Assembly: GCA_965206645.1 (NCBI GenBank)
Contig: CBDBKE010000003.1
Coordinates: 832,001 to 896,000, forward strand
Source: Terriglobia bacterium
Lineage (GTDB): Bacteria; Acidobacteriota; Terriglobia; JAJPHL01; JAPKYU01
Direction of reading: 5' to 3'
Length of the DNA: 64,000 nucleotides
Shown here piece by piece: positions 24,604-49,319 of the stretch. Position 1 is the first letter of the stretch; every line of letters starts with the position of its first letter. Below the pieces are notes generated by a model, which was given only the letters and a program-made list of their open reading frames with translations, had not been told where the DNA came from and did no database searches. Position numbers and translations under genes: made by a program.

Positions 24604-24729
24604 CAGCGATCCGGCTGATCAAGGACGCGCTTCCGTTTCTCCAGAAGGTCCTCTTTGAGGGCGTTATTAGTAATTCGCCAGCGACAGGCAAACAGGTCGA
24701 TTTTTGATGCGCCATGGAAATAGGGTTTG

Positions 24730-24758
24730 TTGAGGATGAAGGAGTTAGGAGTTAGAAT
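24730..24758 (+). promoter_or_regulatory. Sigma70-like promoter for tRNA-Arg
   Basis: TTGAGG-N17-TAGAAT ending 8 bp before the tRNA. Confidence 0.6.
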
Positions 24759-24766
24759 GCACGTAT

Positions 24767-24842
24767 GCGCCCGTAGCTCAGAGGATAGAGCATCTGCCTT
24801 CTAAGCAGAGGGTCGCAGGTTCGAGTCCTGCCGGGCGCGCCA
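24767..24842 (+). tRNA. tRNA-Arg(TCT)
   Basis: Acceptor stem GCGCCCG/CGGGCGC, anticodon arm TCTGC-CT-TCT-AA-GCAGA, GTTCGAG T-loop, encoded CCA. Confidence 0.97.
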
Positions 24843-24998
24843 TCCTTTTCAACCGGTTAGAGGGGACCAGTTCCCACGGTCTGCCCGCTTGTCCACACAG
24901 ATGTCCACACGAGTCCGGTAGATGCGGTGTTTTGTGCCGGTCTCCGATGTTTAGTGGCCGTTCGCAATTGCACACAATCCCCCGGCCGGCGCGAGATC

Positions 24999-25120
24999 AT
25001 GCGACGTTTCGCTGGCATCTACGCGCTCTATCGCCGAAAACGTCTCTACTACATCGGCCTGACTACGAACCTCCTAGGCCGAATCAAATGGCATCTCCGA
25101 GACCGGCACGCGCGGAAGTG
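24999..25120 (+). pseudogene. GIY-YIG-like nuclease fragment
   Basis: FAGIYALYRRKRLYYIGLTTNLLGRIKWH, then loss of similarity. Confidence 0.55.
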
Positions 25121-25169
25121 GGGTCTGCGCATTGCCGATCAAGCCGATCAAGGACCGCGTGGGACGACG

Positions 25170-25335
25170 ATGGCAAGGTTGAGTATCGCGATCGCCTCCT
25201 TGGTTCTGGCGTCCTCGGCCGCAACCTGGATGGTGACTGAGCCTGACGCAACGGAGATCGTCAGGCTCTCCGACCTAGCCATCCGAGGCAAAACGCTGCA
25301 GGGAAAGTCCTCCATGACGGTTCGTACTCCCGACC
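25170..25335 (+). pseudogene. N-terminal fragment of a LolA-like lipoprotein-sorting protein
   Basis: Signal peptide followed by DATEIVRLSDLAIRGKT...MTVRTPD, then truncated. Confidence 0.45.
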
Positions 25336-25518
25336 GTCGGAGCGCACCAGGCAGGGCCCGGAGGACTCGTTGAAGGCGAGGCCAAACTGCGCGCCCGGCA
25401 CGGTGGTGATCATCACCTCGTAGAGGTCCCCTACCGTCTTGATAAAGTGGGATTGCCCAATCACCACGTTGGCCCCTTCGGGAATTTCGATGCCGACAGC
25501 GTGCAGATTTACAGCCAT
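25332..25518 (-). pseudogene. Adenosine-specific kinase (DUF355-type) N-terminal fragment
   Basis: NVVIGQSHFIKTV and FGLAFNESSGPCLVR, truncated after about 62 codons. Confidence 0.75.
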
Positions 25519-25551
25519 CCTTTCCTCCAGAAAAACAGCAGCATCGCCAGG

Positions 25552-27474
25552 TGTCAAGGGCGGAGTAAAACTAGACCACTCCGGCGGAGAGAAAGTAGAC
25601 CAGTTCAGGGGTGGTGGAAGCTTTGATTTGAGAGGGAGTTGCGGGGGCGGTTGGAGCGGAGGCCTGCGACGCCCGCAGGGCGGCGCGGTTAGGCCGGAGT
25701 GGAAGCCGCTCTCGCAACTCGTCGCCCAGTATTGGGTGAGATCAGGCGCGAGGCTTTCCGGAACGCCTTCGTTTGCTGTCCTTGAGCCGGCAACTTTCCC
25801 CGTTCATCTCCAGGATGTGGACATGGTGGGTGAGACGATCCAGCAGGGCTCCGGTCAGCCGCTCCGATCCGAAGGCCTCCGTCCATTCGTTGAACGGCAG
25901 GTTGCTGGTCACCACGGTGGCGCTGCGTTCGTAGCGCCGGCTGAAGACCTCAAACAGCAACTCCGCCCCAGTCTTGGATAGCGGCACGAAACCCAGCTCG
26001 TCAATGATCAACAGCTCGAAACTGGAGAGCATCTTCTGGAACCGCATCAGGCGCCGCTCGTCCTTGGCCTCGATCAGCTCATGCGCCAGGGAGGCCGCCG
26101 TAGTGAACCGGACCCGGAACCCTTTCTGACAGGCGGCCAGTCCCAGCGCCAACGCAATGTGGGTTTTTCCCGTGCCCGAGTTCCCTAAAGCCAGGATGTT
26201 CTCCTTGCGTTCGATGAACTCGCCTCGGGCCAGCTCGAGCACCAAGGCCTTATTCAGCGACGGAAGGGCCAGGAAATCGAAACTGTCGAGGCTCTTCACC
26301 ACGTCGAACCTGGCTTGGTGAATGCGCCGCTCGGTGGCGCGCCGTTCCCGGTCCAGCAGCTCCAGCTCCGTCAACCGCAGCAGGTAGCGCGGGAAGTCCA
26401 CGCCCTCGGCAGCGCACTGCTGCGCCACCTTGTCGTACTCACGCAAAAAGGTGGGTAATTGCAGGGCCTTCAGATGGTGTTCCAGCAACACCTGGGGCGT
26501 GTCCATCAGCAGACTCCTTCCCGGAGCAGGGTCAGATAGTCGGCGGCGGCTGTGGTGGCCACCTGCGTCGCCGGCAGGTGCGGATAGTGCTCCAGGTCCA
26601 GCCGCGCCGGCCGCTGCTCGATCCGGCCCAGCAGCAGATGCTTGACCGCGTCAGACCAGATCGCCCCCAGCCGCAAGGCGTCCTCGACGGCCAGCGACAC
26701 TTCCGTCCAACGGAACGTCTCCAGCCGTCGCAGGACCTGCACATACTCCCGCTTGCCCTTCTTGCCTAACCGCGCCTCCATCAGCCGCCGCAGTTGCGCG
26801 AAGCCTTCCGGCAACTCCCAGCCGGCCAGGGGGGCGGCCTGGTTCAACGCGTTCGGCTTCTGCTCCAGCAGCGCCAGATAGTGCAACGGATCGAAGATCA
26901 TCTCTTCCCGTTCCTAGCTCCGGACATGGCGTGCGATCACTTCGCTCGCTGCACAGATCACCACTTCCTCGACGAATCCCTTCACCAGCACCTCCCGGTG
27001 CCCCCAAGCCACCGGCACCGAATAGTCGTTGGATCGATACCGCACCAGCGACAGTGACGTCACCCGTGTGGTCCGTTTGTCGCAGGCCTCATAGGGCGTC
27101 GCCGGCAGGGGCAGCAGCCTCTGTTGATCCTTCGCGAACCGCTCGCCGATCGTCTCTTGATGTCCTCGCAGACGCCGCTCTCGCCGCCGGGTGCACTGTT
27201 CCCGCAGCTTCGCGTGCAACTCCTCCCAGCTGGCACACCGCGGCACCGGCACCAGGAAGTTCCGCCGCACGTAACCCACTAGTCCTTCCACTTTCCCTTT
27301 GTCATTGCCCTTGCCCGGTCGTCCGAACTTCTCCGCAAACAGGTAGTGACTCTGCAGTTCGGAGAACGCCCGCGTCTTGTTCCGTGTTCCGTCACCCAGG
27401 ATCTGCCTCACCGCCAGCTTGGTGTTGTCGTACAGGATCGTGCGAGGCACTCCGCCGAAGTAGCCGAACGCCTG
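25552..27474 (-). mobile_element. IS21-family element, truncated by IS3: intact istB (25742-26506), partial istA with an internal TAG near 26915
   Basis: IstB GNSGTGKTH, IIDELG, LLDRLTHH. IstA YDN and KGKVE motifs. End TGTCAAGGGCGGAGTAAAACTAGACCA with a second internal repeat. Confidence 0.92.
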
Positions 27475-30093
27475 TGACCAGACCGATTTTTTGTACCAAC
27501 CGTAGTGAGAGTTTACATCGCAGCCTGGGGCTGTGAAACTGGTTTCAGTGGCAGGGGAGGGCTATAGAGTCTGTGTGAAAACCGCTCTTGCGAGTCACGT
27601 ATAATGCGCCTTAAGGGGGCGCGATGAAATTCTTGACCTACAACCCGGAGCAAGCGTATCTGCTACCGCCCAGCGTGCGGGAGGTGCTGGGAGAAGATCA
27701 CATCTGTTTTTTTGTGCACCAAGTCGTGGAGCGGCTGGAACTGAGTGCGTTTGAGCAGGGCTACGTGGAAGAAGGCCGCCCGGCCTATCATCCGGCGCTG
27801 TTGCTGAAGGTGTGGCTGTATGCCTACGCGCTGGGCGTGACCTCGGCCCGCCGTCTGGAACAGCGGGTGCGGGAGGACCTGGCGTTCCGTTATCTGGCGG
27901 CCGGAGCGGGGCCGGACTTTTGGACGCTGAACCAGTTTCGGACGCGGCACGCCCGTGCCCTGAACGATCTGTTCACACAGGTGGTGGAGTTGGCGCGGTC
28001 GCTGGGGATGGGGCGGCTGGGACACGTGGCCATGGACTCGACGCGGGTGGCGGCCAACGCCTCGCAGGACCGGGTGGAGACGGTGGCCAAGTTGAGGGCA
28101 GAGCGAGCCAAAATTCGGCGGCAGATTCGTCGCTTGCAGAAACAATGTGACACGCAGTCCTGCGAGGAAGCGGCTGGCCAGCAACTGAGCGGCAAGCAGA
28201 TGGCAGCGCTGGAGAAGCGGCTGGAAGAAATCCCGCGATGCCTGGAGCGGTTGCGCAAAAGCGGGCTGAAGCGGCGTTCGGAAACCGATCCCGACAGCCG
28301 GTTTTTGCCGACCGCAAGGGATTCACGCTGGGTTACACGGCGGAGGTGGCGGTCAGCGAAGATCATCTGATTGTCGAGCAGCACGTGGGGCAAAACGCCA
28401 CCGACAACGCGACGCTGGTCCCTCTGGTGGAGGCGGTCGAGCGGCACTGCCGGGAACGCCCGCGAAGGTCAGCGCCGACAGCGGCTTCTTTTGTGGAGAC
28501 CATCGTGGAAGCCCAGCGTGGCCGACGTCTATGTGCCCGACTCGAACTTGGCGCGGGAACTGAACCGAGGCCAACGCGCGCCCGGAGCACCTGCTGTACG
28601 GCATCCGGAACATCGGCGAATGCGACGCAAGCTGCGCGACCCGGCCGGCCGGGCGGTTTATCAGCGGCGCAAGGCGATCGTGGAACCAGTGATCGGGGTT
28701 TTGAAAGAACAGCGTGGAATGCGGCAGTTCCGGCGGCGGGGCCTGGAGAAGGTCGCGGTGGAGTTCGCGCTGGCCGCAACGGCCTTCAACCTCACCCGCC
28801 TGTGGCGCAACAAACCGAAGCTAAATCAGGAAGGCTAGTTCAGCAGACTCCCGGACCGGCGACTCGGCGAAGATCGAAACACCAGAATTCTGGAGCGAAT
28901 CATGAGATTTCCAGCCAGCTAAACCGAGGGCTATAGGCCCCCGGCGCCGGGGGCCTATAGGCGAGCGCCGAGTGCGGCCGCACCGTGTTGTATTGCACCC
29001 TCCACTGTTCAATCACCACCTGTGCCTCCTTCAACGAGTAGAAGATCTCTCCATTCAGGCATTCGTCCCGCAGCTTCCCATTGAAACTCTCGCAGTACCC
29101 GTTCTCCCAGGGACTGCCCGGTTCGATGTACAGTGTCCCGGTCCCTAGATTTGCCAACCACTGGCGCAGTTGTTTGGCGATGAACTCGGGACCATTGTCG
29201 GATCGAATCTGTTCCGGTATCCCTCGCCACAACATCACGTCCGACAACGCCTCAATGATTTGTTGGCTGCCCATCCTCCGCTCCACCCGGATCGCCAGGC
29301 ATTCCCGCGTGTACTCATCCAGCAAGGTCAGCAGCCGCAGCGTTCTCCCCTCGTGCGTTCTGGCACTCATGAAGTCGTAGCTCCACACGTGGTTCGGTCG
29401 CTCCGGCCTCAGTCGTACACAGGAACCGTCGTTCAGCCACAGCCGTCCTCGCGGCCTTTGTTTTTGCGGCACTTTCAGCCCTTCCCGCCGCCAAATCCGC
29501 TGCACCCGGTCCTTGCCCACTTCCCAGCCCGCACTCCGCAGCAACGCTGTGATCCTCCGGTAGCCATATCGCCCGCACTTCGCTCCCAGGGCAATGATCG
29601 CTCGGGTCAGAGCATCCTCGTCCACCCGATGAATCGGCTCGTATCGTTGTGTCCCTCGCCATTGCCCTAGCAGCCGGCAGGCATGCCGTTCCGACAACCC
29701 GTGTTGCTCCCACGCACGCTCCACCGCACAACGCCGCCGCTCAGGGCTCAGAAGTTTCCCTGTGCCACATCCCGCAGCACCTGCTTCTCCAGAGAAAGCT
29801 TCGCTACCAACCGCTTCAGCCGCGTGTTTTCCTTCTCCAACTCCTTTAGCCGTTTTGCCTGCACCACCTTCAGCCCGCCGTATTCCTTCCGCCACCGGTA
29901 GTAGGTTTGGGTGTGGATTCCAGCTTCTTTGCAGGCTTGGGGCGCAGTCTTCCCGTTCCCCATCTGCACTTCTATCTGCCGTAGCACCGCTACAATCTGC
30001 TCCGGCTTGTAACTCCTTGTCGGCATGACCTCACTTCCTCCTCAAGTGGATTCTCTCTCTTTCCACTTGGTACAAAAAGTGCCGGTCAGGTCA
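27475..30093 (-). mobile_element. IS3-family element, copy 2 (inverted, near-identical to copy 1), interrupted by IS1182
   Basis: Same IRs at 27475 and 30093, orfA 29748-30026, retains YCESF. Confidence 0.95.
27567..28925 (+). mobile_element. IS1182-family element with frameshifted transposase (27624-28838)
   Basis: GRPAYHP, PDFWTLNQFR, MDSTRVAANAS, ETDPDS, YQRRKAIVEPV. Flanked by the direct repeat GAGGGCTATA (27557-27566 and 28926-28935). Confidence 0.9.
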
Positions 30094-30510
30094 GCGAAGC
30101 CTTTAGTTTCGACGATTAGCGAGCACTTAGAAGTGATCTTGTGGAAGCTCCTTGTGAATCCCGCAATGTCTATTTTGCCTCCAGCAACTGGAAATTCAAC
30201 TTTGAGCTTCCGCTCAGCCCATCCCAACGAAAGCAAAAGAGGAAGCACAAGAAACGAGCACGTTTCATGCTCACAGACTTCGGCCCAGTCACAGTAGTTG
30301 TAGTAGTAGTCAGCCAGGAGTCTGATTCGTCGGAACGTATTCGTTAGCTCCTCCGCAGCATCCGGGCGTAGCCCCTCCGCGGCAAAATGTGGCAGGTGAT
30401 GCTCATTCTGGTCGGCTTGGTGGCGAGCATCTGCCGGGCCGAATATGTTCCCCTGACTTGGCCAGAACTCGTCCTGGATCTGATCGCCTTTCACGATCCG
30501 ACTTTGCATG
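30094..30510 (-). pseudogene. Internal fragment of a PD-(D/E)xK / HsdR-N-like nuclease
   Basis: EHETCSFLVLPLLLSLGW...VEFPVAGGKIDIAGF...LIVETK, cut by IS3 on one side and IS6 on the other. Confidence 0.6.
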
Positions 30511-31461
30511 GGCTTTGTCAAGTTAAGGCAGAATCAGGTAGTGGGCTACTTTGAATCCGCAGGAGCTGTCGTAGCGGCGGCCTTTAGGCCGCCATGGGTC
30601 TTGGCAGTCTGAAGCCTGCCGCTACGCCAACAACCCGTGGCAGCCTGAAGCGTCCAAAAGGATCAAAGTAGCCCACTACCCAGAATCAGGCACAATTGGC
30701 GGATGAAATCACAATATCGAGGGCATCGCTTTCCAGCTGAAACTATCAGTCACGCCGTCTGGCTGTACCATCGGTTCACGATGAGCTTTCGCGACGTCGA
30801 AGACCTGCTTGCTGAGCGAGGCAGCATCGTTTCTTACGAGGCAATTCGATATTGGTGTCTGAAGTTCGGGCCGGCCTATGCTCGCAATCTGCGGAGGAAG
30901 CAGGGGCGACTCGGCGACATCTGGCATGTAGATGAGCTCTTCATCAAAATCCGAGGTTAGCACTTCTATCTGTGGCGAGCTGTCGATCAGGATGGAGACG
31001 TAATCGATATTCTGGTTACCAAATGTAGAGATCGTCGAGCCGCTACGCGCTTCTTTCGTAAGATGTTGCAATATCAGAAACGACCACCCTGGCAACTGAT
31101 CACCGACAAGCTGCGCAGTTATAGGGCAGCGCATCGAGAGGTCTTTCCTGGCTGTCGTTCATCGCACCGGTCGATACGAGAACAACAGGGCTGAAGCCTC
31201 GCATCAGCCAACGCGTCAGCAAGAACGCCGGATGAGACGGTTCAAATCAATAGAACATACACAACGTTTTCTCTCAGTCCACGGCCCCATTCAGAACTTG
31301 TTCCGAGTCGGTCGTCATCATCTGAAAGCGCACCATCATCGACTCCTCCGCACCCGGGCTTTTTCCGATTGGAAAGAGATGACGTGCGCCTGTTGAGTAA
31401 TTGCAAAACTCCATTCGTTTTCGGGAGAATCTTGCCTCGGCTCCGTTAACTTGACAAAGCC
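30511..31461 (+). mobile_element. IS6-family element, defective, copy A
   Basis: IRs GGCTTTGTCAAGTTAA / TTAACTTGACAAAGCC. Transposase YRGHRFP and WHVDE with a premature TAG at 30958 and a frameshift near 31150. Confidence 0.93.
30537..30680. mobile_element. 144-bp MITE with 18-bp perfect TIR and 8-bp TSD, carrying an inverted REP-like pair
   Basis: TIR GGTAGTGGGCTACTTTGA, TSD CAGAATCA. The empty site is visible in IS6 copy B. Confidence 0.92.
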
Positions 31462-31575
31462 CTCTACGAAGCTCTTGACTTGCCCGGCCAGCCGCTTCTG
31501 CTCCTGTGCGTATTGCCCGGCCGGTTTGCCTAATTCGTCCGTCAATTGCTGCTCTAGCTGGGTCATAGATCTTCT

Positions 31576-33852
31576 TCAGCCGCGCTTCCACGCTGGCGAT
31601 CTGCGCGGTTTTATCTGTGACCTGCCGGGTGTAATCGTCGCGCTCGCGGCGATCCGCCCGCTGGCCGGATCGCCGAGCCATTCGTCCAGCTTCGACCACC
31701 GCCGCCCCGAGACGTTACGCACTGCGATGGCCACCGCCTTTTTTTGGCCGACCAGCACAACCAGCCGTCTACCGCGCGTCACGCCGGTGTAGAGCAGATT
31801 CCGCTGGAGCATGGCGTAGTGCTGAGTCAGCACGGGGATGACGACGGCGGGATACTCTGAGCCCTGGCTCTTGTGAATAGTTACGGCGTATGCGGGAACC
31901 AGCGTATCAAGCTCGCCGAAGCCATAAGCGACGGCGCGCCCGTCGAAACTCGCGTTCAGCTCCCCGGCATTGGGATCGACATCTTCGATATAGCCGATGT
32001 CGCCGTTATAAACTTCTTTGTCGTAATCGTTTTCGATCTGCATCACCTTGTCTCCAGGCGCAAAGGTCCAACCGAAGCGTTCGACCTTGCACTCGCCGGC
32101 GGGATTGAGGGCGGCCTGCAGCTCAATGTTGAGCGAGCGGGTGCCGGCGCCGCCACGGTTCATCGGGCACAGCACCTGGATGTCGCGGACGGGATCGAGC
32201 CCGAAGCGCTTCGGGATGCGCGTCTTCACCAATTCGATGATCTGCAGGACCGCGGTTTCCAGATCGTCTGCCTGTACGAAGTAGAAGTCGCTGTCGCCCT
32301 TAGGTTTTGAAAGATCTGGAATGGAGCCCCGATTGATCCTGTGTGCGCTGGTGACGATCCGGCTCAGCGCCGCCTGACGGAAAACCTCGGTCAGCCGCAC
32401 GACGGGGACCGTGCCGGAGGAAATGATGTCGGCAAGCACCTGGCCCGGACCGACTGAGGGGAGTTGGTCGATGTCGCCGACAATCAGCAACGCGGCACCG
32501 TCGGGGACTGCCTTCAGCAAGGCCTGCATCAGCATGATGTCCACCATCGAGGTCTCGTCGACTACCAGCAGGCCGCAGTCAAGAGGGTTGTCGGCGTTGC
32601 GCTTGAACCCGCCGGCCCTGGGATCGACTTCGAGCAGCCGGTGGATCGTCCTGGCCTCGAACCCGCTGGCCTCGGTTATCCGTTTGGCGGCGCGGCCGGT
32701 TGGCGCGCAGAGCAGAAGGTTCACGCCCTTGGCGGCCAGGATGCGCAGAATGGCGTTGACGATGGTTGTCTTGCCCACGCCCGGCCCTCCGGTGATGACC
32801 AATGCCTTGGAGATCAGAGCCAGGCGAACCGCATCGGCCTGGCTTGCCGCCAGCGACAGGCCGGTCTTCCGCTCGACCCAGGGTATCGCCTTGCCGGCAT
32901 CGATATCCGGCCAGGGGAGCTTGCCATCCGCAATCCGTAGAAACCGTTCGGCAATCGCCCGTTCGGCCCGGTACAGACCGCCGAGGAAAATACAGGGGGT
33001 GTCGGCAACCGTGTCCGCAACGATCGTCCCTTCGCCCAATTCGAGATCCAGTGCGCTCTGAACCAACTCATTTGAGACTTCCAGCAATTCGACGGCGTGC
33101 GGCACAAGCTCTTCGGCGGGCAGGCCGCAATGACCGTCGTCCATCGCCTCGGTGAGCGCATAGGAGATCCCCGCGCGAACCCGGATCATGGCGGCCTTCC
33201 CGATGCCGAGCTTCATGGCGATCGCGTCGGCGGTCTTGAACCCGATGCCCCGAATGTCCCGTGCAAGGCGGTACGGGTTCTCGGTCATGACCTGAACGGC
33301 ATCCGCGCCGTAGGTCTTGTAGATCCGCACCGCGGTCGCCGTGCCAACGCCATGACTGTGCAGAAAAACCATGATCTCGCGAACGATCTTCTGTTCCGCC
33401 CAGGCGTCAGTGATCCGCCCGGCGCGTACGCGCCCGATTCCGGTTACCTCGCACAGCCGTTCCGGCTCCGCCTCGATGATATCGAACACTTTTACACCGA
33501 ACGTCTTGATCATCTTCCCGGCGTAGACCGGCCCGATGCCGCGGATCATGCCGGAGCCGAGGTATTTCTCGATGCCGTCGATCGACGACGGTGCCGAGGT
33601 GCGTATAAAACGCGCCTTGAATTGCTGACCATGGGTACGGTCGTTAACCCATTCCCCCGATGCCGAAATCCACTCCCCCGCCGAGACGATGGCGGCGTGG
33701 CCGACGACCGTCACAAAATCGTGATGGCCCCGGACCTTGGTGCGTAGGACACAAAATCCGTTATCGGCATTGTGGAACGTCACCCGCTCGACAAGGCCGG
33801 CCAGGACTTCTCGAGCCGACGATTCCGGTTGTCGCTTGACTGTGGTTGTCAC
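31576..33852 (-). CDS. recD2: ATP-dependent RecD-like DNA helicase (RecD2)
   Basis: N-terminal VERVTFHNADNGF and HhH repeats, GGPGVGKT, VDETSM, HKSQGSE. The extreme C-terminus runs into unrelated, possibly mobilisation-gene-derived sequence. Confidence 0.93.
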   Translation of the reverse strand: MTTTVKRQPESSAREVLAGLVERVTFHNADNGFCVLRTKVRGHHDFVTVVGHAAIVSAGEWISASGEWVNDRTHGQQFKARFIRTSAPSSIDGIEKYLGSGMIRGIGPVYAGKMIKTFGVKVFDIIEAEPERLCEVTGIGRVRAGRITDAWAEQKIVREIMVFLHSHGVGTATAVRIYKTYGADAVQVMTENPYRLARDIRGIGFKTADAIAMKLGIGKAAMIRVRAGISYALTEAMDDGHCGLPAEELVPHAVELLEVSNELVQSALDLELGEGTIVADTVADTPCIFLGGLYRAERAIAERFLRIADGKLPWPDIDAGKAIPWVERKTGLSLAASQADAVRLALISKALVITGGPGVGKTTIVNAILRILAAKGVNLLLCAPTGRAAKRITEASGFEARTIHRLLEVDPRAGGFKRNADNPLDCGLLVVDETSMVDIMLMQALLKAVPDGAALLIVGDIDQLPSVGPGQVLADIISSGTVPVVRLTEVFRQAALSRIVTSAHRINRGSIPDLSKPKGDSDFYFVQADDLETAVLQIIELVKTRIPKRFGLDPVRDIQVLCPMNRGGAGTRSLNIELQAALNPAGECKVERFGWTFAPGDKVMQIENDYDKEVYNGDIGYIEDVDPNAGELNASFDGRAVAYGFGELDTLVPAYAVTIHKSQGSEYPAVVIPVLTQHYAMLQRNLLYTGVTRGRRLVVLVGQKKAVAIAVRNVSGRRWSKLDEWLGDPASGRIAASATITPGRSQIKPRRSPAWKRG

Positions 33853-41470: not shown

Positions 41471-41542
41471 CTATTGCTTAGTGCACGATTGTCCCGTTTC
41501 GTGAGGTGACCCCTAATCGGTAGCTTGCATCTATCGCGGGGC

Positions 41543-41571: not shown

Positions 41572-41677
41572 TTGCAATGAAGGGTGCCGCCCAGATTGCT
41601 GCACAAATATCCTTTAAGCTAAAATAGTTGAGCTTGTCTTCAGCATTCAAACTAAGTTTATTGAAGTTGATCCAGCA

Positions 41678-42265: not shown

Positions 42266-42748
42266 GCGTCTATTTTGCAACAGCGGGTAGCCCCGGTGCC
42301 GCTTTTCCCTGTCGTGGTTTTGTCCATGTAAAGCGTCAAGACGGCGCCCGAATAAAACGTGTGGCATGGAAAATTGTGCGCGGCCTGTATTTCTATCACC
42401 ACGGGGCCATTCTACTGGATTCTTTCTCCGTAGATTGCACCCTCACTGCTAAGGGCCGGCCGCTCCCTGAGCACATTCGGGCGGTGATTGGCCTTTTGGA
42501 GGATGAAGGACATGGCCAGTATCCCGGTTAAGAGGAGTTTCTCGCAAAGGCGCTGACCACAGCCAAGCTCGTTGACAAAAGCCGCCTGTTCTGTGTGAGG
42601 CGCAGGTAGGCTTTGCCAGGCCAGTTCCGAAATGACCCCTCCGGGGTCAGGGTCTATGTCAGGCGTAATTGCTGTCCCATGCGCTGGCGATCCACCCGGG
42701 TGGGTCGGATGGAGACAATTCTTCTTCTGCTGCCCTGCTGCTACACGT

Positions 42749-43666
42749 CTATTGTGCCACCCTCCGACATACCCCTTGAAAGTAGGTGAGAAGTGATATC
42801 GCCCTGAAACTATTCTGCTCAGTCGCATAACTGACGGATTCACCGTGCAGTACTTGGTGCCGATTGAGTGCGTCGAACAAAACACCTCTTTCCTTTTCGT
42901 TGGCCCATAATGGGTTATTTGTTCTCGGCTCCCTCGGCTCCAGAAGGTTCAACATCGTTGCAACATATTGGAGTTGGGGATCATTCCTGAAGTCTCGCAT
43001 CGTAGATGTCAGCTTGTTCTTCTGGAGGACATTCTTACGAAACTGATCCCGCCAAATCCCATCGGCCTGAGAAAGGAATGCTGGAACTGACAGTGTATAT
43101 TGTCCTGCTCTGTGAGCCTCGAATGCATCATGAAGGATTTGACTGCGAAGGGGATATGACTTGGATAGTTCACTCTCTATTGAATCTATCCGCATCCTAA
43201 AATGAGAACAAATGGCATCTGTTTTCCCACTACTATCATTCGCCCCTAACGAGTCCGTAAAGAGCTGAAGTTGCTCTATAGGTGTGTCCGGACTCAAGAA
43301 CCACCCGTGAGTGCTCAGCGTTTCCAAGCACTCCTGTTGTTGTGTACTCAATTGCTCAAGCCGAACTACGATCGACGTGATCTTCTTTTTGATCTCTGCC
43401 GTTGCCTCCCCGATGGTACTTGTCGGGCCTTGCTGAAGCCACAACACAGTCAGCCGCTGAAGATCTTGAGTGTGTCGATTTAAACATTCGTCATCTTCTT
43501 CCGGACTGGGTCCCGACGCATCAATCGTAAGGTCGTGTCGAGCAGATTTCATCTCTTCAATTTCGCACATATCGGAGAAACCGGAAGGCACGCCATCTAT
43601 CCAGGATTTCCTTTTTGGCCATCGCAGCAAGGTTAGGATAGCTGACCCGGAATTGCCATGCAGCAT
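42749..43666 (-). CDS. Hypothetical protein with C-terminal HEPN-like RxxxxH motif
   Basis: LNRHQVLHGES, lower GC than flanking core genes. Confidence 0.65.
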   Translation of the reverse strand: MLHGNSGSAILTLLRWPKRKSWIDGVPSGFSDMCEIEEMKSARHDLTIDASGPSPEEDDECLNRHTQDLQRLTVLWLQQGPTSTIGEATAEIKKKITSIVVRLEQLSTQQQECLETLSTHGWFLSPDTPIEQLQLFTDSLGANDSSGKTDAICSHFRMRIDSIESELSKSYPLRSQILHDAFEAHRAGQYTLSVPAFLSQADGIWRDQFRKNVLQKNKLTSTMRDFRNDPQLQYVATMLNLLEPREPRTNNPLWANEKERGVLFDALNRHQVLHGESVSYATEQNSFRAISLLTYFQGVCRRVAQ

Positions 43667-43685
43667 TTTTCTGTGTTCCTGTCGC

Positions 43686-43747
43686 GTTCAACCCTCCGTT
43701 CAAACCCGCGCGGGGCGTCAAACACGGTGCGAAGGGCGCGTTTAGGC
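43686..43747. other. attC-like (integron cassette) site
   Basis: GTTCAAC-N5-GTTCAAAC...GTTTAGGC imperfect palindrome, 19 bp from the start of the 305-aa gene. Confidence 0.45.
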
Positions 43748-44206
43748 TGACCCGGGGCCATGCGACGACACCTCTCCGACGTGGCCCCTCAGCAACTCCT
43801 CATTCCGGCCGCTTCGCGAGGCGCTTTAGCCATACAGGTCGGGTTGCTGAGCAACCAGGGCGACTCCGGGACACAGCCGGCGGGCCTCGGCAATGGATGT
43901 CCCGGTCCGGATGCCGCTGCGCTTGGCGAGCTCGTTGGCCGCGATCACGCAGCTATGGACCGCATCGGCGAAGGGAATCACTCCGATGGGACGGTCCTGC
44001 AAGCGAGGGTCGGCCTGCTCTTCGCAGGCCGCAAAGAAGCCGTCGGAATCGACGTACAGACGCTCCGGCTGGAGAGGTTTTCGCAGGAGGGTACTGTCAA
44101 GTTGAGCAGAATCCGCCCGTTTTGCGGAAGGATTCTGCTGGATCAGAGACTGAGAATCAATGACTTAGCGGTGGCGGCGGGCGGCGAGAATGCCGCCAAA
44201 CTACTT

Positions 44207-44220
44207 AACTTGACAGTACC
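44207..44220. mobile_element. Solo IS6-type terminal repeat
   Basis: AACTTGACAGTACC, identical to the right end of the IS6 at 50864-51667. Confidence 0.6.
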
Positions 44221-44562
44221 CCCCGGAGTGCCTCCAGATGACACGCCGAAGCTCACCTCCCTCCTGGCACTTTATTGAATCACCGCCCGGTTCTCGACAG
44301 AATAGAATTTGCTCTGCGTGACTGGGCCAAGGTTTCCAGCAACGTGGAGGCGACTTCCCTAGCCCCTCCTACGGCGAAGATGGTGATCTCCTCCTGCCCG
44401 GCTCCTGACCCAGTGGGACAAGTTCGGCCGGCCAGCACCAGCCGCTGGCGATCATCCCGGCCGGCTGGTTGGCCGGCGGGTTAGGTTGTTAGTTTGGCAA
44501 AGCCCAGGTGTGAAACGCTGCTATTATGGCAGCAGATCGCCCTATCGCGCGAATGTAAGAGC

Positions 44563-44883
44563 ATGCCCGATAAGCCCAAATTCGAGGGACCCGACCGGCG
44601 TCAGCGGTACCGGGTCACCAACGAGGTCAAGATCCTGGTCAAGGCTGGCAAGTTGTTTTCCCAAGTGGGAAGCGTCAAGAACCTCACCCGCAATGGAATC
44701 TTTTTTGAGGCTTTTGGTGATTACCAGCCGGGCATGGGGATGGAAGTCATGTTTCCCTACGACCCATCAAAGCCCTCGATGGAACGGCCCATGAGTGCCG
44801 AAGTCGTGCGGGTCCAAGAAATCGAAGGCTCAATCAAAAAGGGCGTGGCCATCAAGCTGCTTGGCATTTTCCTGAAACCCTAA
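44563..44883 (+). CDS. Single-domain PilZ protein
   Basis: DRRQRYR, NLTRNG and AEVVRV...GVAI. Confidence 0.75.
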   Translation: MPDKPKFEGPDRRQRYRVTNEVKILVKAGKLFSQVGSVKNLTRNGIFFEAFGDYQPGMGMEVMFPYDPSKPSMERPMSAEVVRVQEIEGSIKKGVAIKLLGIFLKP

Positions 44884-45041
44884 ACAAATTGCAGGAAAAA
44901 CTGCGCCCCAGCCCCCAAGTGTCTTTTGTTCCCACGCCCCGCGCAGCAGTTGGTGCAATTTATCGAGTCGCCATTGCTCGGGAGCACTCACCTCCGCTGA
45001 TTCAGGTTTTCACTTCCCTCCGCCGCATTGGCGCCCCGCAC

Positions 45042-45430
45042 TCAAGACCATCGCCGCCAGCGACGTTCTGCTTGCCGCACTTGCTGCTCGTTCAGGCCGA
45101 AGTAATGTCCCACCTCGTGCCAAAGCGTCTCCCGGACGATTTGCCGAAGGTGTCTTTCGTTGCGCGCCAGCCGCTCGATCGGTCCCCGATAAATGGAGAC
45201 CTTGTCGGGCAGTACCAAGCCGTAGCCCGTAGTGCGCTGGGTCAGCGGGACCCCGTGGTAGAGCCCGAGCAGTGTGGAGTCGAGTGGGCAGTCTGCTCGT
45301 TCGAGGTCCTCTGCACTCGGTTCTTCCTCGATCGCGATTGCCACGTTGGCGATGCGGCGGCGGAAGTGCGCCGGGATTTGCAGACAAGCCTCCTCGACTA
45401 GGCGGGCAAACTCCTCCCGCTTGATGTGAC
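45042..45430 (-). CDS. Minimal zincin-like metallopeptidase family protein (start uncertain)
   Basis: LLGLYHGVPL, PDKVSIYRGPI and HEVGHYFG. Confidence 0.85.
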
Positions 45431-45567
45431 GCGCACGCTTACCGGCCTGTAGCTTGTGGCTCGTGCCGAATAGCTTATCACGCGGGAAAATGCACGCTGG
45501 AGCAAGCTCCGCACGGCCGGGCGCGCTTGCCGTTGCATTGTGATACACTGCACAAACAGCCGGCCTC

Positions 45568-47676
45568 ATGCTTAGCCTGGTTGTTCCCACATACAACGAA
45601 CGGCACAACCTGCCGACGCTGCTTGAGCGTCTGCAGTCGGCCCTGGCCGACTGCGGCGAGCCGTTTGAGGTGATCGTCGTGGATGACGACAGCCCTGACG
45701 GTACGGCCGCCGCAGCTCGCTCCCTTCAGCCAAGATTCCCCTGGCTGCGGGTCCGTGCCCGCAAGCACCAGCGCGACCTATCTACGGCGGTACTGGCCGG
45801 CTGGTTTGAAGGACGCGGCGACATTCTGGGCGTGATTGACGGCGACCTGCAGCACCCGCCGGAGTTGCTGCCCACCTTGCTCCGCCGTTTGAAAGAAACG
45901 GGCGCCGACCTGGTGATTGCCAGCCGCCACGTCCGCGGCGGCGGCGTCAGCCGCTGGAGTCCCCTGCGGCGCCTGATCTCCTGGGGTGCCACCCTGATGG
46001 CCGGTTTTATCCTGCCGGGCACGCTCAGCCGCGTGCGCGACCCGATGTCCGGCTACTTCTTGGTGCGCCGCGCCATCATCGAAGGCGCTCCGCTGCGTCC
46101 GGTGGGGTACAAGATCCTGCTGGAAGTGCTGGCTAAGGGCGAATATCAAGAGGTCGAGGAAATCCCCTACATTTTCCAGGAGCGTCTCCGCGGCGGCAGC
46201 AAGCTGAGTGCGCGCCACGGCTGGCAATACCTGCTGCACCTGACCTCGATCGCCCTGGACACCGGCGAGCTGCGCCGCGTGCTTTCCTACGGGGCCGTCG
46301 GTTTCTCCGGCGCGATCGTAAACCTGGGCGCACTGGCAGCGCTGGTGCGTCTGGTCGGTCTGCCCGCTTCGGTCGCCCTGCCAGGAGCGACGGCACTGGC
46401 CATCGTGAACAATTTTGCGCTGAACGACCGCTTTAGCTTTCCTGAGGCGCGCCGCAGAAACCCCGGCCCTGCTGCCACATTCACTCGATTCCTGCGGTTC
46501 CTTTGGATCGTGCTGGCCGGCGTGCTGCTGAATTTCTCTATCGCCATCGCACTGATTCGCTTTGCACAGGTGCCACTGGAGCTGGCCGTGTTGTGCGGCA
46601 TCAGCGCCGCGGCTTGCTGGAATTTCCTGCTGAACTCGCGCGTCACTTGGCGGGCCTGGTGGGATCGCAGCGTGCACCTGCGGCGCTGGCGAAGCGCCGC
46701 CGTGCCACCACCCCCGTCCGACCTGGCCTGCAATCTGTGTGGCGGACGGCAATTTGTGGTGCTGTTCCGCGGGCGCGGCTCCAGGCCGGTCGGACGCCCG
46801 GAGCTGTTCTGTTGCACCAGCATGGACCACGGTGACTACACCAACATTCTGCGCTGCGTCTCCTGCTCACTGGTGGTGCTGGCGCCCTCCGATCCGGTGC
46901 CCGAAGTTGAACAGTTCTACCGCGGCGTGGAAGACCCGCTGTACTTGCGCGAGGAGCGGGGGCGTGTGCGCACCTTCGACCGCTTGACGGACGAGATCGG
47001 AGAGCTGCGCAGCGGCGGGCGCCTGCTCGATGTGGGTTGCTATACGGGCGTCTTCCTGGAGCGGGCCCAGCGGCGGGGCTGGGAGGTCACCGGCCTGGAA
47101 CCCAGCCAATGGGCGGCCGGCGTGGCGCGCAGCCGCGGCCTGAACGTCCTCGAAGGATTGCTGGCGGAAAACAACCTGCCGCCGGAAAGTTTTGACGTCG
47201 TCACCGTATGGGATGCCATCGAGCATTTTGGCGACCCGCGCGCCGAGATCGACCGCCTGGCCCATCTGCTAAAACCCGGCGGGCTGCTGGCTCTCTCCAC
47301 CATGGACGTGGAAAGCGGGTTTGCCCGCCTGTTGGGACCGCGCTGGCCCTGGTTCATGCGCATGCACCTGTATTACTTTTCTCCGGACACGCTGCGCGCC
47401 TTGCTGGCGCAGTGCAACCTGGAAGTGGCCAGGGTGCGGCGCCACCGGCGAATCGTCAGTGCACGCTATCTGTTGGAAAAAGCTGCGGCACAGTTTCCGT
47501 GGGCGAGCGGAGCTCTGGTCCTGCTGGCCCGGTTGCCCTTGCTGGGGCGAGTTCACCTGCCGGTGAACTTCGGTGACATCATCAACGTCTGCGCGATTAA
47601 GACGACGCAGCCTGTCGCTGTCGATGCAACCCCCGCGGCAGAAACGAGAGAAAATCCGACGACCCACAGACGATGA
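45568..47676 (+). CDS. Fusion of GT2 (polyprenol-phosphate mannosyltransferase-like), GtrA-like flippase and class I SAM methyltransferase
   Basis: VVPTYNE, DDDSPDGT, IDGDLQHPP, DPMSG. Four-TM GtrA-like segment. CNLC/CVSC, LLDVGCYTG, WDAIEH, LKPGG. Confidence 0.88.
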   Translation: MLSLVVPTYNERHNLPTLLERLQSALADCGEPFEVIVVDDDSPDGTAAAARSLQPRFPWLRVRARKHQRDLSTAVLAGWFEGRGDILGVIDGDLQHPPELLPTLLRRLKETGADLVIASRHVRGGGVSRWSPLRRLISWGATLMAGFILPGTLSRVRDPMSGYFLVRRAIIEGAPLRPVGYKILLEVLAKGEYQEVEEIPYIFQERLRGGSKLSARHGWQYLLHLTSIALDTGELRRVLSYGAVGFSGAIVNLGALAALVRLVGLPASVALPGATALAIVNNFALNDRFSFPEARRRNPGPAATFTRFLRFLWIVLAGVLLNFSIAIALIRFAQVPLELAVLCGISAAACWNFLLNSRVTWRAWWDRSVHLRRWRSAAVPPPPSDLACNLCGGRQFVVLFRGRGSRPVGRPELFCCTSMDHGDYTNILRCVSCSLVVLAPSDPVPEVEQFYRGVEDPLYLREERGRVRTFDRLTDEIGELRSGGRLLDVGCYTGVFLERAQRRGWEVTGLEPSQWAAGVARSRGLNVLEGLLAENNLPPESFDVVTVWDAIEHFGDPRAEIDRLAHLLKPGGLLALSTMDVESGFARLLGPRWPWFMRMHLYYFSPDTLRALLAQCNLEVARVRRHRRIVSARYLLEKAAAQFPWASGALVLLARLPLLGRVHLPVNFGDIINVCAIKTTQPVAVDATPAAETRENPTTHRR

Positions 47677-47682
47677 CAGTAG

Positions 47683-48944
47683 TGACCTGCCCCCCTTCAA
47701 TCGGTCCAGTTGATAAGTTAGAGGTTAGGGTACGGACTGGACATGGAAGGGGGGAGGAATGCCGAAGAAGCGATATCCAGCCGAACAGATCATCCGACAT
47801 CTACGAGAGGCGGAAGTGGAGCTGGCCAAGGGCCAGACAACGGGAGGGGTCTGTCGGAAGTTGGGAATTACGGAGCAGACCTATTACCGATGGCGGAAGG
47901 AGTACGGGAGCTTACGAGTGGATCAGGTGAGGCGTCTGAAGGAACTGGAAGGGGAGAATGGCCGACTGAAGAAGTTGGTAGCAGATCAGGCGTTGGACCT
48001 TGCGATTCTGAAGGAGACATCCTCGGGAAACTTCTGAGCCCGCCCCGACGGCGGCAGGCAGTGAAGCATGTCTGCCAAGCCATGGGGGTGTCGGAGCGGC
48101 GGGCGTGTCGGGTGGTAGGACAGAATCGATCCACGCAACGGCATCGAACCTTGGCGCCACAGGATGAACCGAGCCTGGCAACTCGGACGCTGCAGTTAGC
48201 CGGCGAGTACGGCCGTTATGGCTATCGGCGGATCACGGCGCTGTTGCGCCGGGAGGGGTGGCGGGTGAACCACAAGCGGGTAGAGAGAATCTGGCGGCAG
48301 GAGGGACTGAAAGTGCCGAAGAAACAGCCCCGCAGAGGCCGGCTGTGGTTGAACGATGGGTCGTGCCTTCGGTTAAGACCGTGCTGGCAGGATCATGTCT
48401 GGGCGTACGATTTTGTGGCAGATCGAACCCACGATGGTCGTCCACTGAAGATCTTGACGGTGGTGGATGAATACACGCGAGAGTGTTTGGCGATCGACGT
48501 AGAACGGCGAGCCGATTCGATGAGTGTTTTGGAACGGCTAGCAGCCTTGTTTGTGGAGCGGGGAGTTCCCGATTACCTTCGCTCGGATAATGGGTCCGAG
48601 TTCACCGCTCGGTTGGTACGGGACTGGCTGGAACGGGTCGGGGTGAAAACCCTGTTCATCGAGCCTGCGAGCCCCTGGGAAAACGGGTATGTGGAATCGT
48701 TTAACGGGAAGTTTCGAGACGAGCTTCTGAATGGAGAGATCTTTTACACCTTGCGGGAAGCGAAGGTGTTGATTGAGGGATGGCGGCGGGAGTATAACAG
48801 AGTTCGCCCGCACAGCGCGTTGGGCTACCGGCCGCCAGCCCCGGAAGTGATCCTGCCGTTACCGCCGGGTTCCGCTCCGCTCCACCCGGCTGCAACGGCG
48901 TATGGACTACCATGGAAGGTGGACCAATAACCGGGGGCAGGTCA
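47683..48944 (+). mobile_element. IS3-family element, apparently intact (orfA 47759-48037, orfB to 48930)
   Basis: IRs TGACCTGCCCCC / GGGGGCAGGTCA, GGGAAAC slip site, WAYDF, SDNGSEF, YVESF. Confidence 0.95.
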
Positions 48945-49068
48945 AGGCCGAACTGAACGATTTCTGGCACATTTCTAGCACAGTTTGAGGCGAACAGGTC
49001 GATTTTTGATGCGCCATGGAAGTAGGGTTTGTTGAGAATGAAGGAGTTAGGTGTTAGGAGGCACGTAT

Positions 49069-49110
49069 GGGCGGTTAGCTCAGTTGGTCAGAGCGCCTGC
49101 CTTACAAGCA
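49069..49110 (+). tRNA. 5' half of tRNA-Val(TAC), non-functional, att-like
   Basis: GGGCGGTTAGCTCAGTTGGTCAGAGCGCCTGCCTTACAAGCA. Similarity stops within the 3' strand of the anticodon stem. Confidence 0.85.
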
Positions 49111-49319
49111 CTGAACTCCTCTCTATTGCGTCTATCTGCTTCTATATTGTTCAATAACTTAGGGACTCTGCTTTTCGCTCAAAGCTAATCCCAACCGACT
49201 CAGATTCGGGGGTTTTGTCACGGTTTTGTCACGGTCGTAAATCGGTCCTCGCAAGTCCCTTACACAGTTTATTCACACCTCGTCACCAGGCATTCCTCCC
49301 CACGAAATCGTCACCTACA

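Follow-up and report, generated by a model that had tools for sequence, protein, structure and literature searches.

Two near-identical segments in the window (the whole 64,000-nucleotide stretch of Terriglobia DNA that was analysed) very likely stem from a family of Terriglobia tyrosine-integrase elements, in which they form the promoter-proximal end of the right arm; members of this family would use the anticodon loop of a tRNA gene as their recombination site and, oriented the reverse of the usual way, would replace both the 5′ half of the gene and its promoter. We name the repeated segment arm C. Its two copies (24691-24766 and 48993-49068; Table 1) are identical at 71/76 bases (93.4%) without a gap (E 7e-26 in a search of the window's own 4.4-Mb genome, G000), and both terminate in GCACGTAT directly before tRNA base +1. 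No third copy of the 76-mer is present in these 4.4 Mb, where the next-best matches are 13-14 nt.

A preliminary description, made from sequence alone, had reported a 76-bp segment that occurs twice with five differences, abutting tRNA-Arg(TCT) and a 42-nt half of tRNA-Val(TAC). That much held (71/76 identities, an ARAGORN call and a 42/42 match, respectively), but 76 bp is not the size of the segment: the true similarity spans 81 nt at the Arg copy (from 24686), and at the Val copy the arm runs for 126 nt (from 48943). The limit of 76-81 nt is a point of truncation by other insertions, not a natural arm end; both copies are orphans, cut upstream by those insertions. The same description had seen no intact integrase in the window, and this held for the arm C family, of which tblastn finds no member there; the closest integrase anywhere in G000 is at most 63% identical to that of arm C elements. 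Nor was a displaced 5′ half of tRNA-Arg found in the window. In the absence of both, our reading of the window depends on relatives.

Table 1. Features of the Arg locus (22670-24910) and the Val locus (47683-49327), in window coordinates
Feature	Position	Strand	Remark
IS3-family insertion sequence	22670..23921	+	adjoins repeat X, upstream of Arg locus
Repeat X	23922..24685	.	three genome copies; right end substitutes for upstream part of arm C
Arm C remnant, 81 nt	24686..24766	+	aligns with relatives' arm C up to -1
Sigma-70-like promoter candidate, TTGAGG-N17-TAGAAT	24730..24758	+	ends 8 nt before tRNA +1
Intact tRNA-Arg(TCT)	24767..24842	+	ARAGORN
39-nt 5′ part of tRNA-Arg, inferred to be element-supplied	24767..24805	+	same 39 nt adjoin arm C in G218 and G054
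Tandem TGTCCACAC repeats	24890..24910	+	downstream of tRNA-Arg
IS3-family insertion sequence	47683..48942	+	right end truncates arm C of Val copy
Arm C remnant, 126 nt	48943..49068	+	94% identity with G003 arm positions 10-135
Tandem 11-nt repeats TTTCTGGCACA and TTTCTAGCACA	48961..48982	+	within arm C remnant
Dead 5′ half of tRNA-Val(TAC)	49069..49110	+	anticodon loop 49101-49107
Left arm B of second superfamily element	49111..49327	+	TTTTGTCACGG repeats at 49213 and 49224

Instructive evidence came from 401 genomes of the class Terriglobia, among which arm C is present in 11, spread over 9 of 147 genera (in two of the 11 the match covers only a 44-nt part), with 84-100% identity between families. 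In eight other genomes of the class, arm C can be followed farther upstream, across tandem repeats, as far as the stop codon of a tyrosine integrase gene that runs in the same direction. The integrase ORF (391-393 aa) ends 113 nt before tRNA +1 and is whole in integrated copies; the protein of G017 matches PF00589 (E 1.6e-15). This gene lies upstream in every case where arm C is uncut, and upstream of it in turn are genes for a VirB11-like T2SSE ATPase and a TraG-D_C domain protein. Bearing in mind that only 20 of the 40 ORFs of a single element (G017) were scanned and annotated, and that no relaxase or pore genes were found among those 20, we tentatively liken arm C elements to integrative conjugative or mobilizable elements.

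Both limits of a single element could be set in G017 (51.0 kb), G054 (56.8 kb) and G140 (28.8 kb). Each of the three elements has 39-nt tRNA repeats at its ends, and the length given is the spacing of these repeats on one strand. All three have the same order: native leader, 39-nt dead 5′ half, left arm A, cargo, integrase, arm C, intact tRNA. G131 contains a tandem unit of 25.4 kb. The succession of a native leader, a 39-42-nt 5′ half and a left arm occurs in G017, G033, G054, G140, G131 and G218. An unoccupied site is preserved in G099 (L080), in which the same host gene and TATACT leader are followed by an uninterrupted tRNA-Arg(TCT). How the elements are built and bounded, the existence of an unoccupied site and the set of tRNAs that they occupy are shown, not inferred. 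Leaders of arms A and D retain scraps of an earlier tRNA-Val.

With regard to that range, 21 copies of arm C in nine genomes lie before Arg(TCT) (9), Lys(TTT) (6), Val(TAC) (4), Arg(CCT) (1) and Ala(TGC) (1); 13 precede intact tRNA genes (ARAGORN) and eight precede halves that are followed by left arms. Every one of the 21 ends at -1, within 1-2 nt of tRNA +1. All five target tRNAs have the anticodon stem CTGC/GCAG in common, and neither acceptor stem nor leader; the integrases beside different tRNAs are identical or 98% identical, and identical ones are found even within one genome. In G000, CTGC[CT]TNNNAAGCAG occurs in only two of 50 tRNAs, namely those that arm C abuts; because the motif itself was built from the targets, this test is not independent. 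The preliminary description had inferred an element-family end that supplies the 5′ part of a tRNA together with a promoter, and that switched its target while keeping its arm. Both inferences held, the former through the delimited elements and the unoccupied site (use of the promoter remains inferred) and the latter through the five tRNA species. It had also proposed a search with the 76-mer and a comparison with relatives that lack the island: the hits abut +1 of five tRNA types, with an integrase nearby where the arm is uncut, and G099 supplies the unoccupied tRNA-Arg site.

Within the window, the Arg copy of arm C (95% identical to the arm of G218 and 90% to that of G054) is very likely the promoter-proximal end of the right arm of such a 5′-supplying element, and 24686-24842 is very likely the rebuilt gene (attR), now the cell's only tRNA-Arg(TCT): it is the sole TCT tRNA among 50 tRNA genes. 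Its 5′ 39 nt are identical in G218 and G054, which belong to another family (f12) and have the arm variant GGAGTTAGAATGCAC in common with G000, and its 3′ part is identical to that of the congener G003, in which the D-loop differs. Hence we consider it very likely that this gene has a chimeric history, its 5′ and 3′ halves allying with different relatives; we place the crossover, by inference, in the anticodon loop (24798-24804). Upstream, repeat X is 98.8% identical to C2:815644-816407, and part of it (24530-24688) is 98% identical to C4:2035836-2035994; beyond repeat X, the three copies run into three different sequences, and its ORF (23926-24603) has no Pfam match. The adjoining insertion sequence has 71-79 further genome copies at ≥85% identity, and its ORF (22870-23883) matches Pfam rve, rve_3 and HTH_21.

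At the Val locus, the insertion sequence that cuts the arm has 7-14 further genome copies (ORF 47743-48930; rve, rve_3 and HTH_21 matches); upstream of 48943, contigs of three public runs carry on as unbroken arm C. The tandem repeats in this remnant correspond to two copies of TTTTTGGCACA in relatives' arms, and left arm A has similar repeats; they are candidate arm-type integrase-binding sites, although binding is only inferred. The 42 nt that follow arm C match, at 42/42 positions, the start of the intact tRNA-Val(TAC) at C4:c2048746-2048822 and then diverge; ARAGORN calls no tRNA here. Next comes left arm B, which is 98.8% identical to C3:689682-689442 and 94% to C3:286048-285799, and which elsewhere follows an Arg half (G003, G033, G131) or an Ala half (G131). 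The displaced half adjoins arm C and not a native leader because, as we read it, the locus was a tandem array: 48943-49327 is very likely a junction from that former array. A second element, bearing left arm B, would have integrated into the already rebuilt tRNA-Val gene, so displacing arm C and the Val 5′ half together.

The promoter candidate of the Arg copy (TTGAGG at 24730 through TAGAAT at 24758) has 9/12 matches in a promoter scan that returned one site versus 0.2 expected in shuffled sequences. The scan finds none in the Val copy, in which the second hexamer reads TAGGAG. This hexamer had been interpreted as decay in front of a dead gene; that interpretation failed, since TAGGAG also lies upstream of an intact tRNA-Val in G003. 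Among 12 aligned arm copies, TTGAG and TAG are conserved and the -10 hexamer varies (TAGAAT, TAGGAT, TAGGTT, TAGAGT, TAGGAG, TAAGAT). Given that only 81 nt of arm C stand before the sole tRNA-Arg(TCT), either a working promoter lies within them or the gene is read through from repeat X. It is likely that this essential, single-copy gene now relies on a promoter brought in by an element that has since been lost, with the reservations that promoter function is inferred without transcription-start data and that read-through from repeat X is still a possible alternative.

We hypothesize that these loci describe states of the following process. The attP would comprise, in order, the integrase gene, the tandem arm repeats, a promoter-bearing leader of about 85 nt, 39-42 nt from the start of the target tRNA, and the left arm. 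Recombination with a tRNA gene would take place in the anticodon loop, in an orientation reverse to the usual one; the host promoter and 5′ half would thereby be displaced as a dead fragment, and a live gene would be reassembled from the element's promoter, the element's 5′ half and the host's 3′ half. The integrase appears to read the common anticodon stem CTGC/GCAG, the loop and the carried 5′ half of each variant choosing the tRNA. The arm copies in the window would later have lost their integrase through insertions and IS-driven rearrangement. The position of crossover, promoter activity, recognition by the integrase, the route of switching and current mobility are all inferred; no circular or excised form, nor any transcription start, has been observed.

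The principal rival retains the same attP and moves strand exchange to the 5′ boundary of the tRNA (about -1/+1): the intact tRNA would be wholly host-derived, only the promoter would be replaced, and the dead half by the native leader would be the element's copy. The preliminary description had raised a similar alternative, insertion at +1 whatever the tRNA. In its favour are the constant end of the arm at +1, the identical integrases at different tRNAs of one genome, and halves beside the arm that fit the host acceptor stem (GGGCGCG in G017 and G033 versus GCGCCCG in G000 and G003). Against it, the other end of the repeated block always falls in the anticodon loop or 1-3 nt past it, at all junctions read and whichever tRNA or left arm is involved; what the targets share is the anticodon stem, not the acceptor stem or leader; both arm C copies of G131 go with the D-loop variant CTGGACAG, whereas its two left arm D copies follow different variants; G003 has one Arg variant before two different left arms; and the 5′ half in G000 is that of the f12 genomes while its 3′ half is that of the congener. 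D-loop variants thus track the right arm, and we regard exchange at the 5′ boundary as very unlikely. Exchange in the anticodon loop is favoured by this variant linkage, as an inference without cleavage mapping. Crossover in the loop does not explain the exact joining of one arm to +1 of five tRNAs, since it cannot part an arm from its half.

Two further explanations are all but excluded. One, which the preliminary description had named as a refutation of its own reading, is that several core tRNA genes of this lineage have the segment as their normal leader, inherited vertically and duplicated along with them; in its favour, every copy adjoins a tRNA, and one of the copies serves a tRNA that is both essential and single-copy. 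Yet arm C was not found in 390 of the 401 genomes of the class, nor in four other genomes of the window's family outside its genus, and is nonetheless 84-95% identical over five families; in eight other genomes of the class, the native tRNA-Arg(TCT) leaders bear no relation to it; native leaders sit displaced beside dead halves; and an integrase lies upstream of every uncut arm. The other is that assembly of an IS-rich genome created the half-tRNA junction as a chimera: one insertion sequence has at least 70 copies, an IS ends 126 nt before the half begins, 48600-49700 is not bridged by any one public contig, and short-read contigs leave the Val junction in pieces. On the other hand, 48943-49327 contains no repeat longer than the 81-nt arm; contigs of other runs read through both transitions, from arm to tRNA at 48993-49088 and from half to left arm B at 49090-49327, the latter with 0 differences; G003 has the same layout of arm C, half and left arm B, with an Arg half; and the unit of half plus left arm B is found again at C3:689682.

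Nearly all tRNA-integrating elements replace the 3′ end, so that the gene keeps its own promoter, and replacement of the 5′ end is described as rare or seldom encountered (PMC6563490; PMC8371274). The anticodon-loop tyrosine integrases are reported to have a 7-nt loop as the likely overlap, a symmetric anticodon stem on either side of it and several tRNA identities per subfamily (Williams 2002, NAR 30:866). With this classical class the arm C family shares a tyrosine integrase, repeats in tandem in the arm, the rebuilding of a functional tRNA and the use of several tRNA targets. It is the 3′ part, however, that the classical elements bring, so that the original promoter is retained 'with very few exceptions' (PMC8371274), whereas arm C elements carry the 5′ part. 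In Mesorhizobium loti, an element that integrates at a tRNA in reverse orientation has been reported, as a single element at a single tRNA (Zhao and Williams 2002, J Bacteriol 184:859). A bacterial integrase reportedly recombines there, as by inference in the arm C family, with the 5′ tRNA part instead of the usual 3′ part, so the element has to supply that part and its expression signals. Integration by the 5′ part is already known, but rare; what sets the arm C family apart from the M. loti element is that one combination of arm, promoter and integrase recurs at five tRNA species across nine genomes. The arm C family also differs in its tandem arrays, scraps of earlier targets, and 3′-orientation sister elements at the same tRNAs.

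The pTN3-like integrases of Thermococcales likewise use a tRNA 5′ half as attB, the rebuilt gene being expressed from element-borne signals (Cossu et al. 2017; PMC8371274). These are archaeal, with an att inside the integrase gene, which is split on integration, and with expression from the integrase promoter (PMC8371274); the arm C integrase, in contrast, stays whole and ends 113 nt before +1, with a separate promoter-like site between. We rejected membership of this 'suicidal' class, as the arm C integrase ORF is not split in integrated copies. In tRNA-dependent lysogeny of actinobacteriophages, the host tRNA is not rebuilt on integration, and its loss is made good by a complete tRNA gene that the phage carries separately (PMC10865867). 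Both systems depart from simple rebuilding by a phage-borne 3′ half; unlike these phages, the arm C family rebuilds the gene in place from the element's 5′ half.

The family provides many natural replicates of a rare orientation within one bacterial class, among them one arm at five tRNAs, sisters in the usual orientation, unoccupied sites and leader scraps of a previous target; how an integrase lineage gains a new tRNA target without killing the gene becomes a testable question. A bolder reading, which we put forward only as a possibility, is a retargetable system: one integrase reads only CTGC/GCAG, an anticodon stem common to a subset of tRNAs, and the target is set by an exchangeable cassette of 39-42 nt, which two conserved arms enclose and which consists of the 5′ acceptor strand, D-arm and anticodon. 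Such cassettes would be rewritten from host tRNA genes through integrase-initiated heteroduplex or gene conversion. The conversion tract would stop where tRNA homology stops (+1 and the loop), hence the exact -1/+1 boundary; rewriting would also account for identical integrases beside different tRNAs and for 5′ halves that fit the host acceptor stem. The tRNA-Val scraps in the leaders of arms A and D may then be failed or older, cruder switches. If loop and cassette alone do set specificity, a compact, retargetable integration module is suggested.

Sister elements of the same superfamily occupy the same tRNAs in the usual 3′ orientation. Downstream of the tRNA-Arg of the window, the TGTCCACAC repeats are, by inference only, a candidate arm of a separate 3′-side element; at C4:551470 and C4:554838 there are 3′ fragments of tRNA-Arg that have been displaced.

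The two copies of the 76-mer form the tRNA-proximal end of arm C, the right arm of an element, which extends from the stop codon of an integrase, across tandem repeats and a promoter-like leader, to position -1 of a tRNA. The copies match without gaps at 71 of 76 positions (E 7e-26, search of the window organism's own genome, G000), and both finish in GCACGTAT. They are the only two in this 4.4-Mb, four-contig genome, where the next-best matches are 13-14 nt long, and both are tRNA-adjacent: one is directly followed by tRNA-Arg(TCT), the sole TCT tRNA among the 50 tRNA genes of G000, and the other by a 42-nt stretch that reproduces the beginning of the intact tRNA-Val(TAC) of contig C4 without a mismatch and then departs from it. 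The preliminary description had reported a near-identical 76-bp segment at +1 of tRNA-Arg and of a half tRNA-Val (a half being the first 39-42 nt of the gene), and both junctions are confirmed. Its statement that the window has no intact integrase also held; a tblastn search for the integrase, ATPase and TraG-like genes of the arm C family came up empty there.

Locations of the features discussed (window positions unless a contig is named)
Feature	Location	Detail
76-mer, Arg copy	24691-24766
Arm C remnant, Arg copy	from 24686	81 nt left
tRNA-Arg(TCT)	24767-24842
TTGAGG-N17-TAGAAT	24730-24758	ends 8 nt before +1
76-mer, Val copy	48993-49068
Arm C remnant, Val copy	from 48943	126 nt left
RNA-library contig	48993-49088
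Region compared with public runs	48600-49700
Repeat X	23922-24688	225-aa ORF
Tandem TGTCCACAC repeats	within 24843-24930	downstream of tRNA-Arg
Displaced tRNA-Arg 3' fragments	C4:551470-551519; C4:554838-554885	48-50 nt
Truncated third copy of left arm B	C3:286048
80-aa integrase fragment	C4:1110083	3'-orientation type
207-bp repeat	20134-20340	43-44 other copies, 93-99% identity, all four contigs
130-bp repeat	44090-44218	~35 copies
IS copies	22670-23921; 28972-30093; 49727-49872	also elsewhere
Match to last 1216 nt of C4	62785-64000	100% identical, reverse orientation

Because both window copies of the arm are cut upstream, 76 bp is merely a truncation length. The Arg copy is directly preceded by repeat X, which occurs three times in G000, and the Val copy is cut off by an IS3-family element, whose right end adjoins it. 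In three public runs, contigs whose alignment begins where the Val remnant begins carry the arm on upstream, uninterrupted. No single piece from the public runs spans the region compared with them (short contigs only, with depth uninformative), and the RNA-library contig cannot reveal a transcription start. The best match to the arm C integrase in G000 as a whole is 63%, and no displaced tRNA-Arg 5' half was found in it (25-mer without a second copy). The integrase fragment on C4 was considered as the arm C integrase and rejected on account of its type. Also rejected was the idea that the two copies are the ends of one element of 24 kb: the stretch between them contains IS copies and genes for a RecD2-like helicase, a TonB-type outer-membrane protein and a glycosyltransferase-methyltransferase, and it lacks any integrase or VirB11-like or TraG-like gene. 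Both copies are very likely remnants that have been orphaned, and the one before tRNA-Arg now serves an essential tRNA, although its use as a promoter is inferred.

Searching 40 relatives with the 76-mer plus tRNA-Arg placed the 76-mer in one congener, G003, and in two members of another family of the class, G017 and G033; in this search three same-family genomes outside the genus matched the tRNA part only, the 76-mer being absent. Upstream of it in G003, G017 and G033 the sequence (...GATTTTTGGCACATTTTTGGCACAG...) reaches the stop codon of a 391-aa integrase, which ends in ...KLDRQANEHRQISSTARPN and terminates 113 nt before tRNA +1; a VirB11-like ATPase (T2SSE) and a TraG-D_C domain protein lie upstream of this integrase. 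Searching the whole class gave arm C in 11 of 401 genomes (9 of 147 genera, several families, 84-100% identity), two of which match in the 44-nt repeat part alone, there within elements of the usual 3' orientation at tRNA-Ala(GGC). A separate pattern scan of genome contigs gave 3 stretches in 2 Terriglobia MAG records; the distribution figures are those of the class-wide search.

The organization of a complete element is clearest in G017, in which both ends are delimited on one strand, ~51.0 kb apart. At the left junction a host gene and a leader with a TATACT -10 precede a 39-nt tRNA-Arg 5' half and then left arm A (left arms A, B and D are the sequences that follow tRNA 5' halves at the far ends of elements); at the right junction an integrase is followed by arm C and intact tRNA-Arg(TCT). 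The ATTTCTGACACATATTTGGCACAG repeats present in left arm A are similar to the repeats of arm C. The same layout recurs in G054 (56.8 kb, Arg) and G140 (28.8 kb, Lys), and G131 has a 25.4-kb tandem unit. The corresponding unoccupied site is provided by G099: the host gene and TATACT leader of G017, then an uninterrupted tRNA-Arg(TCT). Native tRNA-Arg(TCT) leaders in eight other genomes of the class bear no relation to arm C, which counts against the possibility that the segment is the ordinary leader of core tRNA genes. From the single-element layout, the unoccupied site and the unrelated native leaders taken together, we conclude that integration very likely pushes aside the host promoter and 5' half, the elements bringing replacements for both, with promoter activity inferred. 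The main proposal of the preliminary description, an element end supplying a 5' tRNA portion plus a promoter, is therefore supported, with corrections, by the delimited elements, the unoccupied site and the range of tRNAs in relatives.

At three loci syntenic with the left attachment site (attL) of G017 (L081 in G025, L082 in G085 and L084 in G071), the anticodon loop of tRNA-Arg(TCT) is interrupted by a group I intron (214-244 nt; Rfam RF00028, 53-66 bits), with the splice junction CTGCCTT / CTAAGCAG. These intron-bearing sites are unoccupied, and the intron splits the sequence that the elements appear to use; that it shields the site from integration is a possibility we raise only as speculation.

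Elements of this kind are also evident at tRNA-Val in G000, where the first 26 nt of the tRNA are present seven times and the junctions are of three types. Four of them consist of a conserved upstream segment (integrase stop codon, tandem TTTTGTCACGG or TTTTGATACA repeats, TAGAAT-type promoter), a 40-nt half and then a conserved left arm A; in one, the same segment precedes the intact tRNA-Val; and in two, including the window, a 42-nt half leads into left arm B, which has TTTTGTCACGG repeats like those of the conserved segment. A truncated third copy of left arm B lies on contig C3. A 380-aa tyrosine integrase (PF00589) lies upstream of the intact tRNA-Val and is codirectional with it; a second integrase, on the other side, faces the opposite direction. 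Since promoter and tRNA 5' half adjoin an integrase at these junctions, G000 has several related elements of that kind, probably scattered by its extreme IS load.

The 21 arm C copies counted across nine genomes are a minimum: nine at Arg(TCT), six at Lys(TTT), four at Val(TAC) and one each at Arg(CCT) and Ala(TGC). Thirteen precede intact tRNA genes (ARAGORN), and eight precede halves followed by left arm A, B, D or another type; in 21/21 the arm reaches within 1-2 nt of +1. All five target tRNAs share CTGC-[C/T]T-NNN-AA-GCAG. Within G000 this motif is found in 2 of 50 tRNAs, precisely the two joined to arm C, and its Lys(TTT), Arg(CCT) and Ala(TGC) genes lack the motif and are not used. The test is at most partly independent, because the motif was derived from the targets.

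A mirror-image family was observed downstream of tRNAs (L001, L021, L022, L029, L033, L043, L059, L069, L070, L075, L076). Its conserved arm (TTTAACTT...GACGGAAACGTAAAGAAACCGTCAGAAAAC) begins immediately downstream of the CCA in the genes for tRNA-Val, tRNA-Arg(TCT), tRNA-Lys and tRNA-Arg(CCT), and its inward-facing 390-aa integrase is ~61% identical to that of arm C; with one arm after four tRNA genes, elements of the same superfamily in the usual 3' orientation have also switched among those tRNAs.

Where is the crossover made? In every junction read, whatever the tRNA, the repeated block ends within the anticodon loop or 1-3 nt beyond, at a point set by the left arm (A, ...AAG; B, ...AAGCA; D, ...AAGC). 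Variants in the D-loop track the right arm, not the left: both arm C copies of G131 have CTGGACAG, while its two left arm D copies follow differing variants, and in G003 one Arg half variant precedes both left arm B and left arm D. Furthermore, tRNA-Arg in G000 is chimeric by comparison with relatives: G218 and G054, members of another family, have exactly its first 39 nt and share the arm variant GGAGTTAGAATGCAC, and the congener G003, with a different D-loop, has exactly its 3' part. These three lines of evidence, although inferential, make it likely that crossover occurs in the loop and that the 5' half is carried by the element. They disfavour the alternative, strand exchange at +1, without formally excluding it.

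A crossover in the loop leaves an arm and its half joined; exchange of the 39-42-nt cassette therefore calls for a different process. Integrases beside different tRNAs can be identical (Arg half and intact Val in G003; Ala half and Arg in G131) or 98% identical (Arg and Lys in G033), and tRNA labels do not cluster on the integrase tree (8 changes; minimum possible 5, shuffled mean 9.4, 15/200 shuffles as low). This tree holds near-identical rows and can neither date nor count switches. Resemblance among arms goes by genome, not by tRNA. At L030 in G003, arm D leads into nt 5-24 of tRNA-Val, a GCGCC microhomology and then +1 of an intact tRNA-Arg; in G218 (L061, L065) a degenerate scrap of Val lies between arm A and an Arg half; and at L066 in G131 arm A ends exactly where Arg +1 begins. 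The scraps in the leaders of G003 arm D and G218 arm A are, we infer from their sequence, probably remains of a previous target tRNA. We hypothesize that an element would gain a new tRNA target through an illegitimate or a conversion event, and that the arms of elements sharing a genome would then be kept alike by gene conversion up to the end of homology at +1.

A promoter scan recovered TTGAGG-N17-TAGAAT in the Arg copy; in 12 aligned arm copies TTGAG and TAG are kept and the last three -10 bases vary. The earlier reading of TAGGAG as decay before a dead half failed, as TAGGAG also precedes the intact tRNA-Val of G003. Bearing in mind that the sole tRNA-Arg(TCT) of G000 retains 81 nt of arm, a working promoter must lie there or in read-through from repeat X, an inference made without transcription-start data.

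In PMC6563490 (section 7, where Zhao and Williams 2002 is among the works cited), recombination with the 5'-distal part of a tRNA is called "considerably less frequent" than recombination at the 3' part, and integration at the 5' part is "seldomly encountered in bacteria" (PMC8371274, section 18). Archaeal pTN3-like integrases use a tRNA 5' half as attB (PMC8371274); unlike them, the arm C integrase is not split. The M. loti case (Zhao and Williams 2002) is reportedly a single element at the 5'-distal part of a tRNA, from which the arm C family would differ in scale and in its cassette-like exchange of tRNA halves, a tentative comparison. Neither this Terriglobia family nor one arm fused to several tRNAs was described in the literature searched (prime-sign terms were unsearchable, so misses are possible). 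The family thus very likely represents a known but rare kind of integration in a form that we did not find described.

Other repeats were noted around the copies. The ORF of repeat X has no Pfam match, and the repeat was matched to no mobile element; its three copies share a right end and then continue into arm C, a HigB-like gene or an aldo/keto-reductase-like gene (both genes judged by eye). The displaced tRNA-Arg 3' fragments, which lie on a different contig from the gene itself, start at the anticodon stem or loop and, together with the TGTCCACAC repeats, may point to past 3'-side integrations that were later rearranged. Two thirds of the sampled words from the region compared with public runs occur in 14 runs from 8 studies, and runs with a small share of it include some RNA runs labelled sponge metagenome; much of this region is IS sequence, and so we draw no habitat conclusion. 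The match to the end of C4 could be a contig-end repeat or an unresolved join. One 1.25-kb IS3-family element exceeds 70 copies and several other IS families have 7-20 each, and the 207-bp repeat has the appearance of a miniature mobile element, which it may be.
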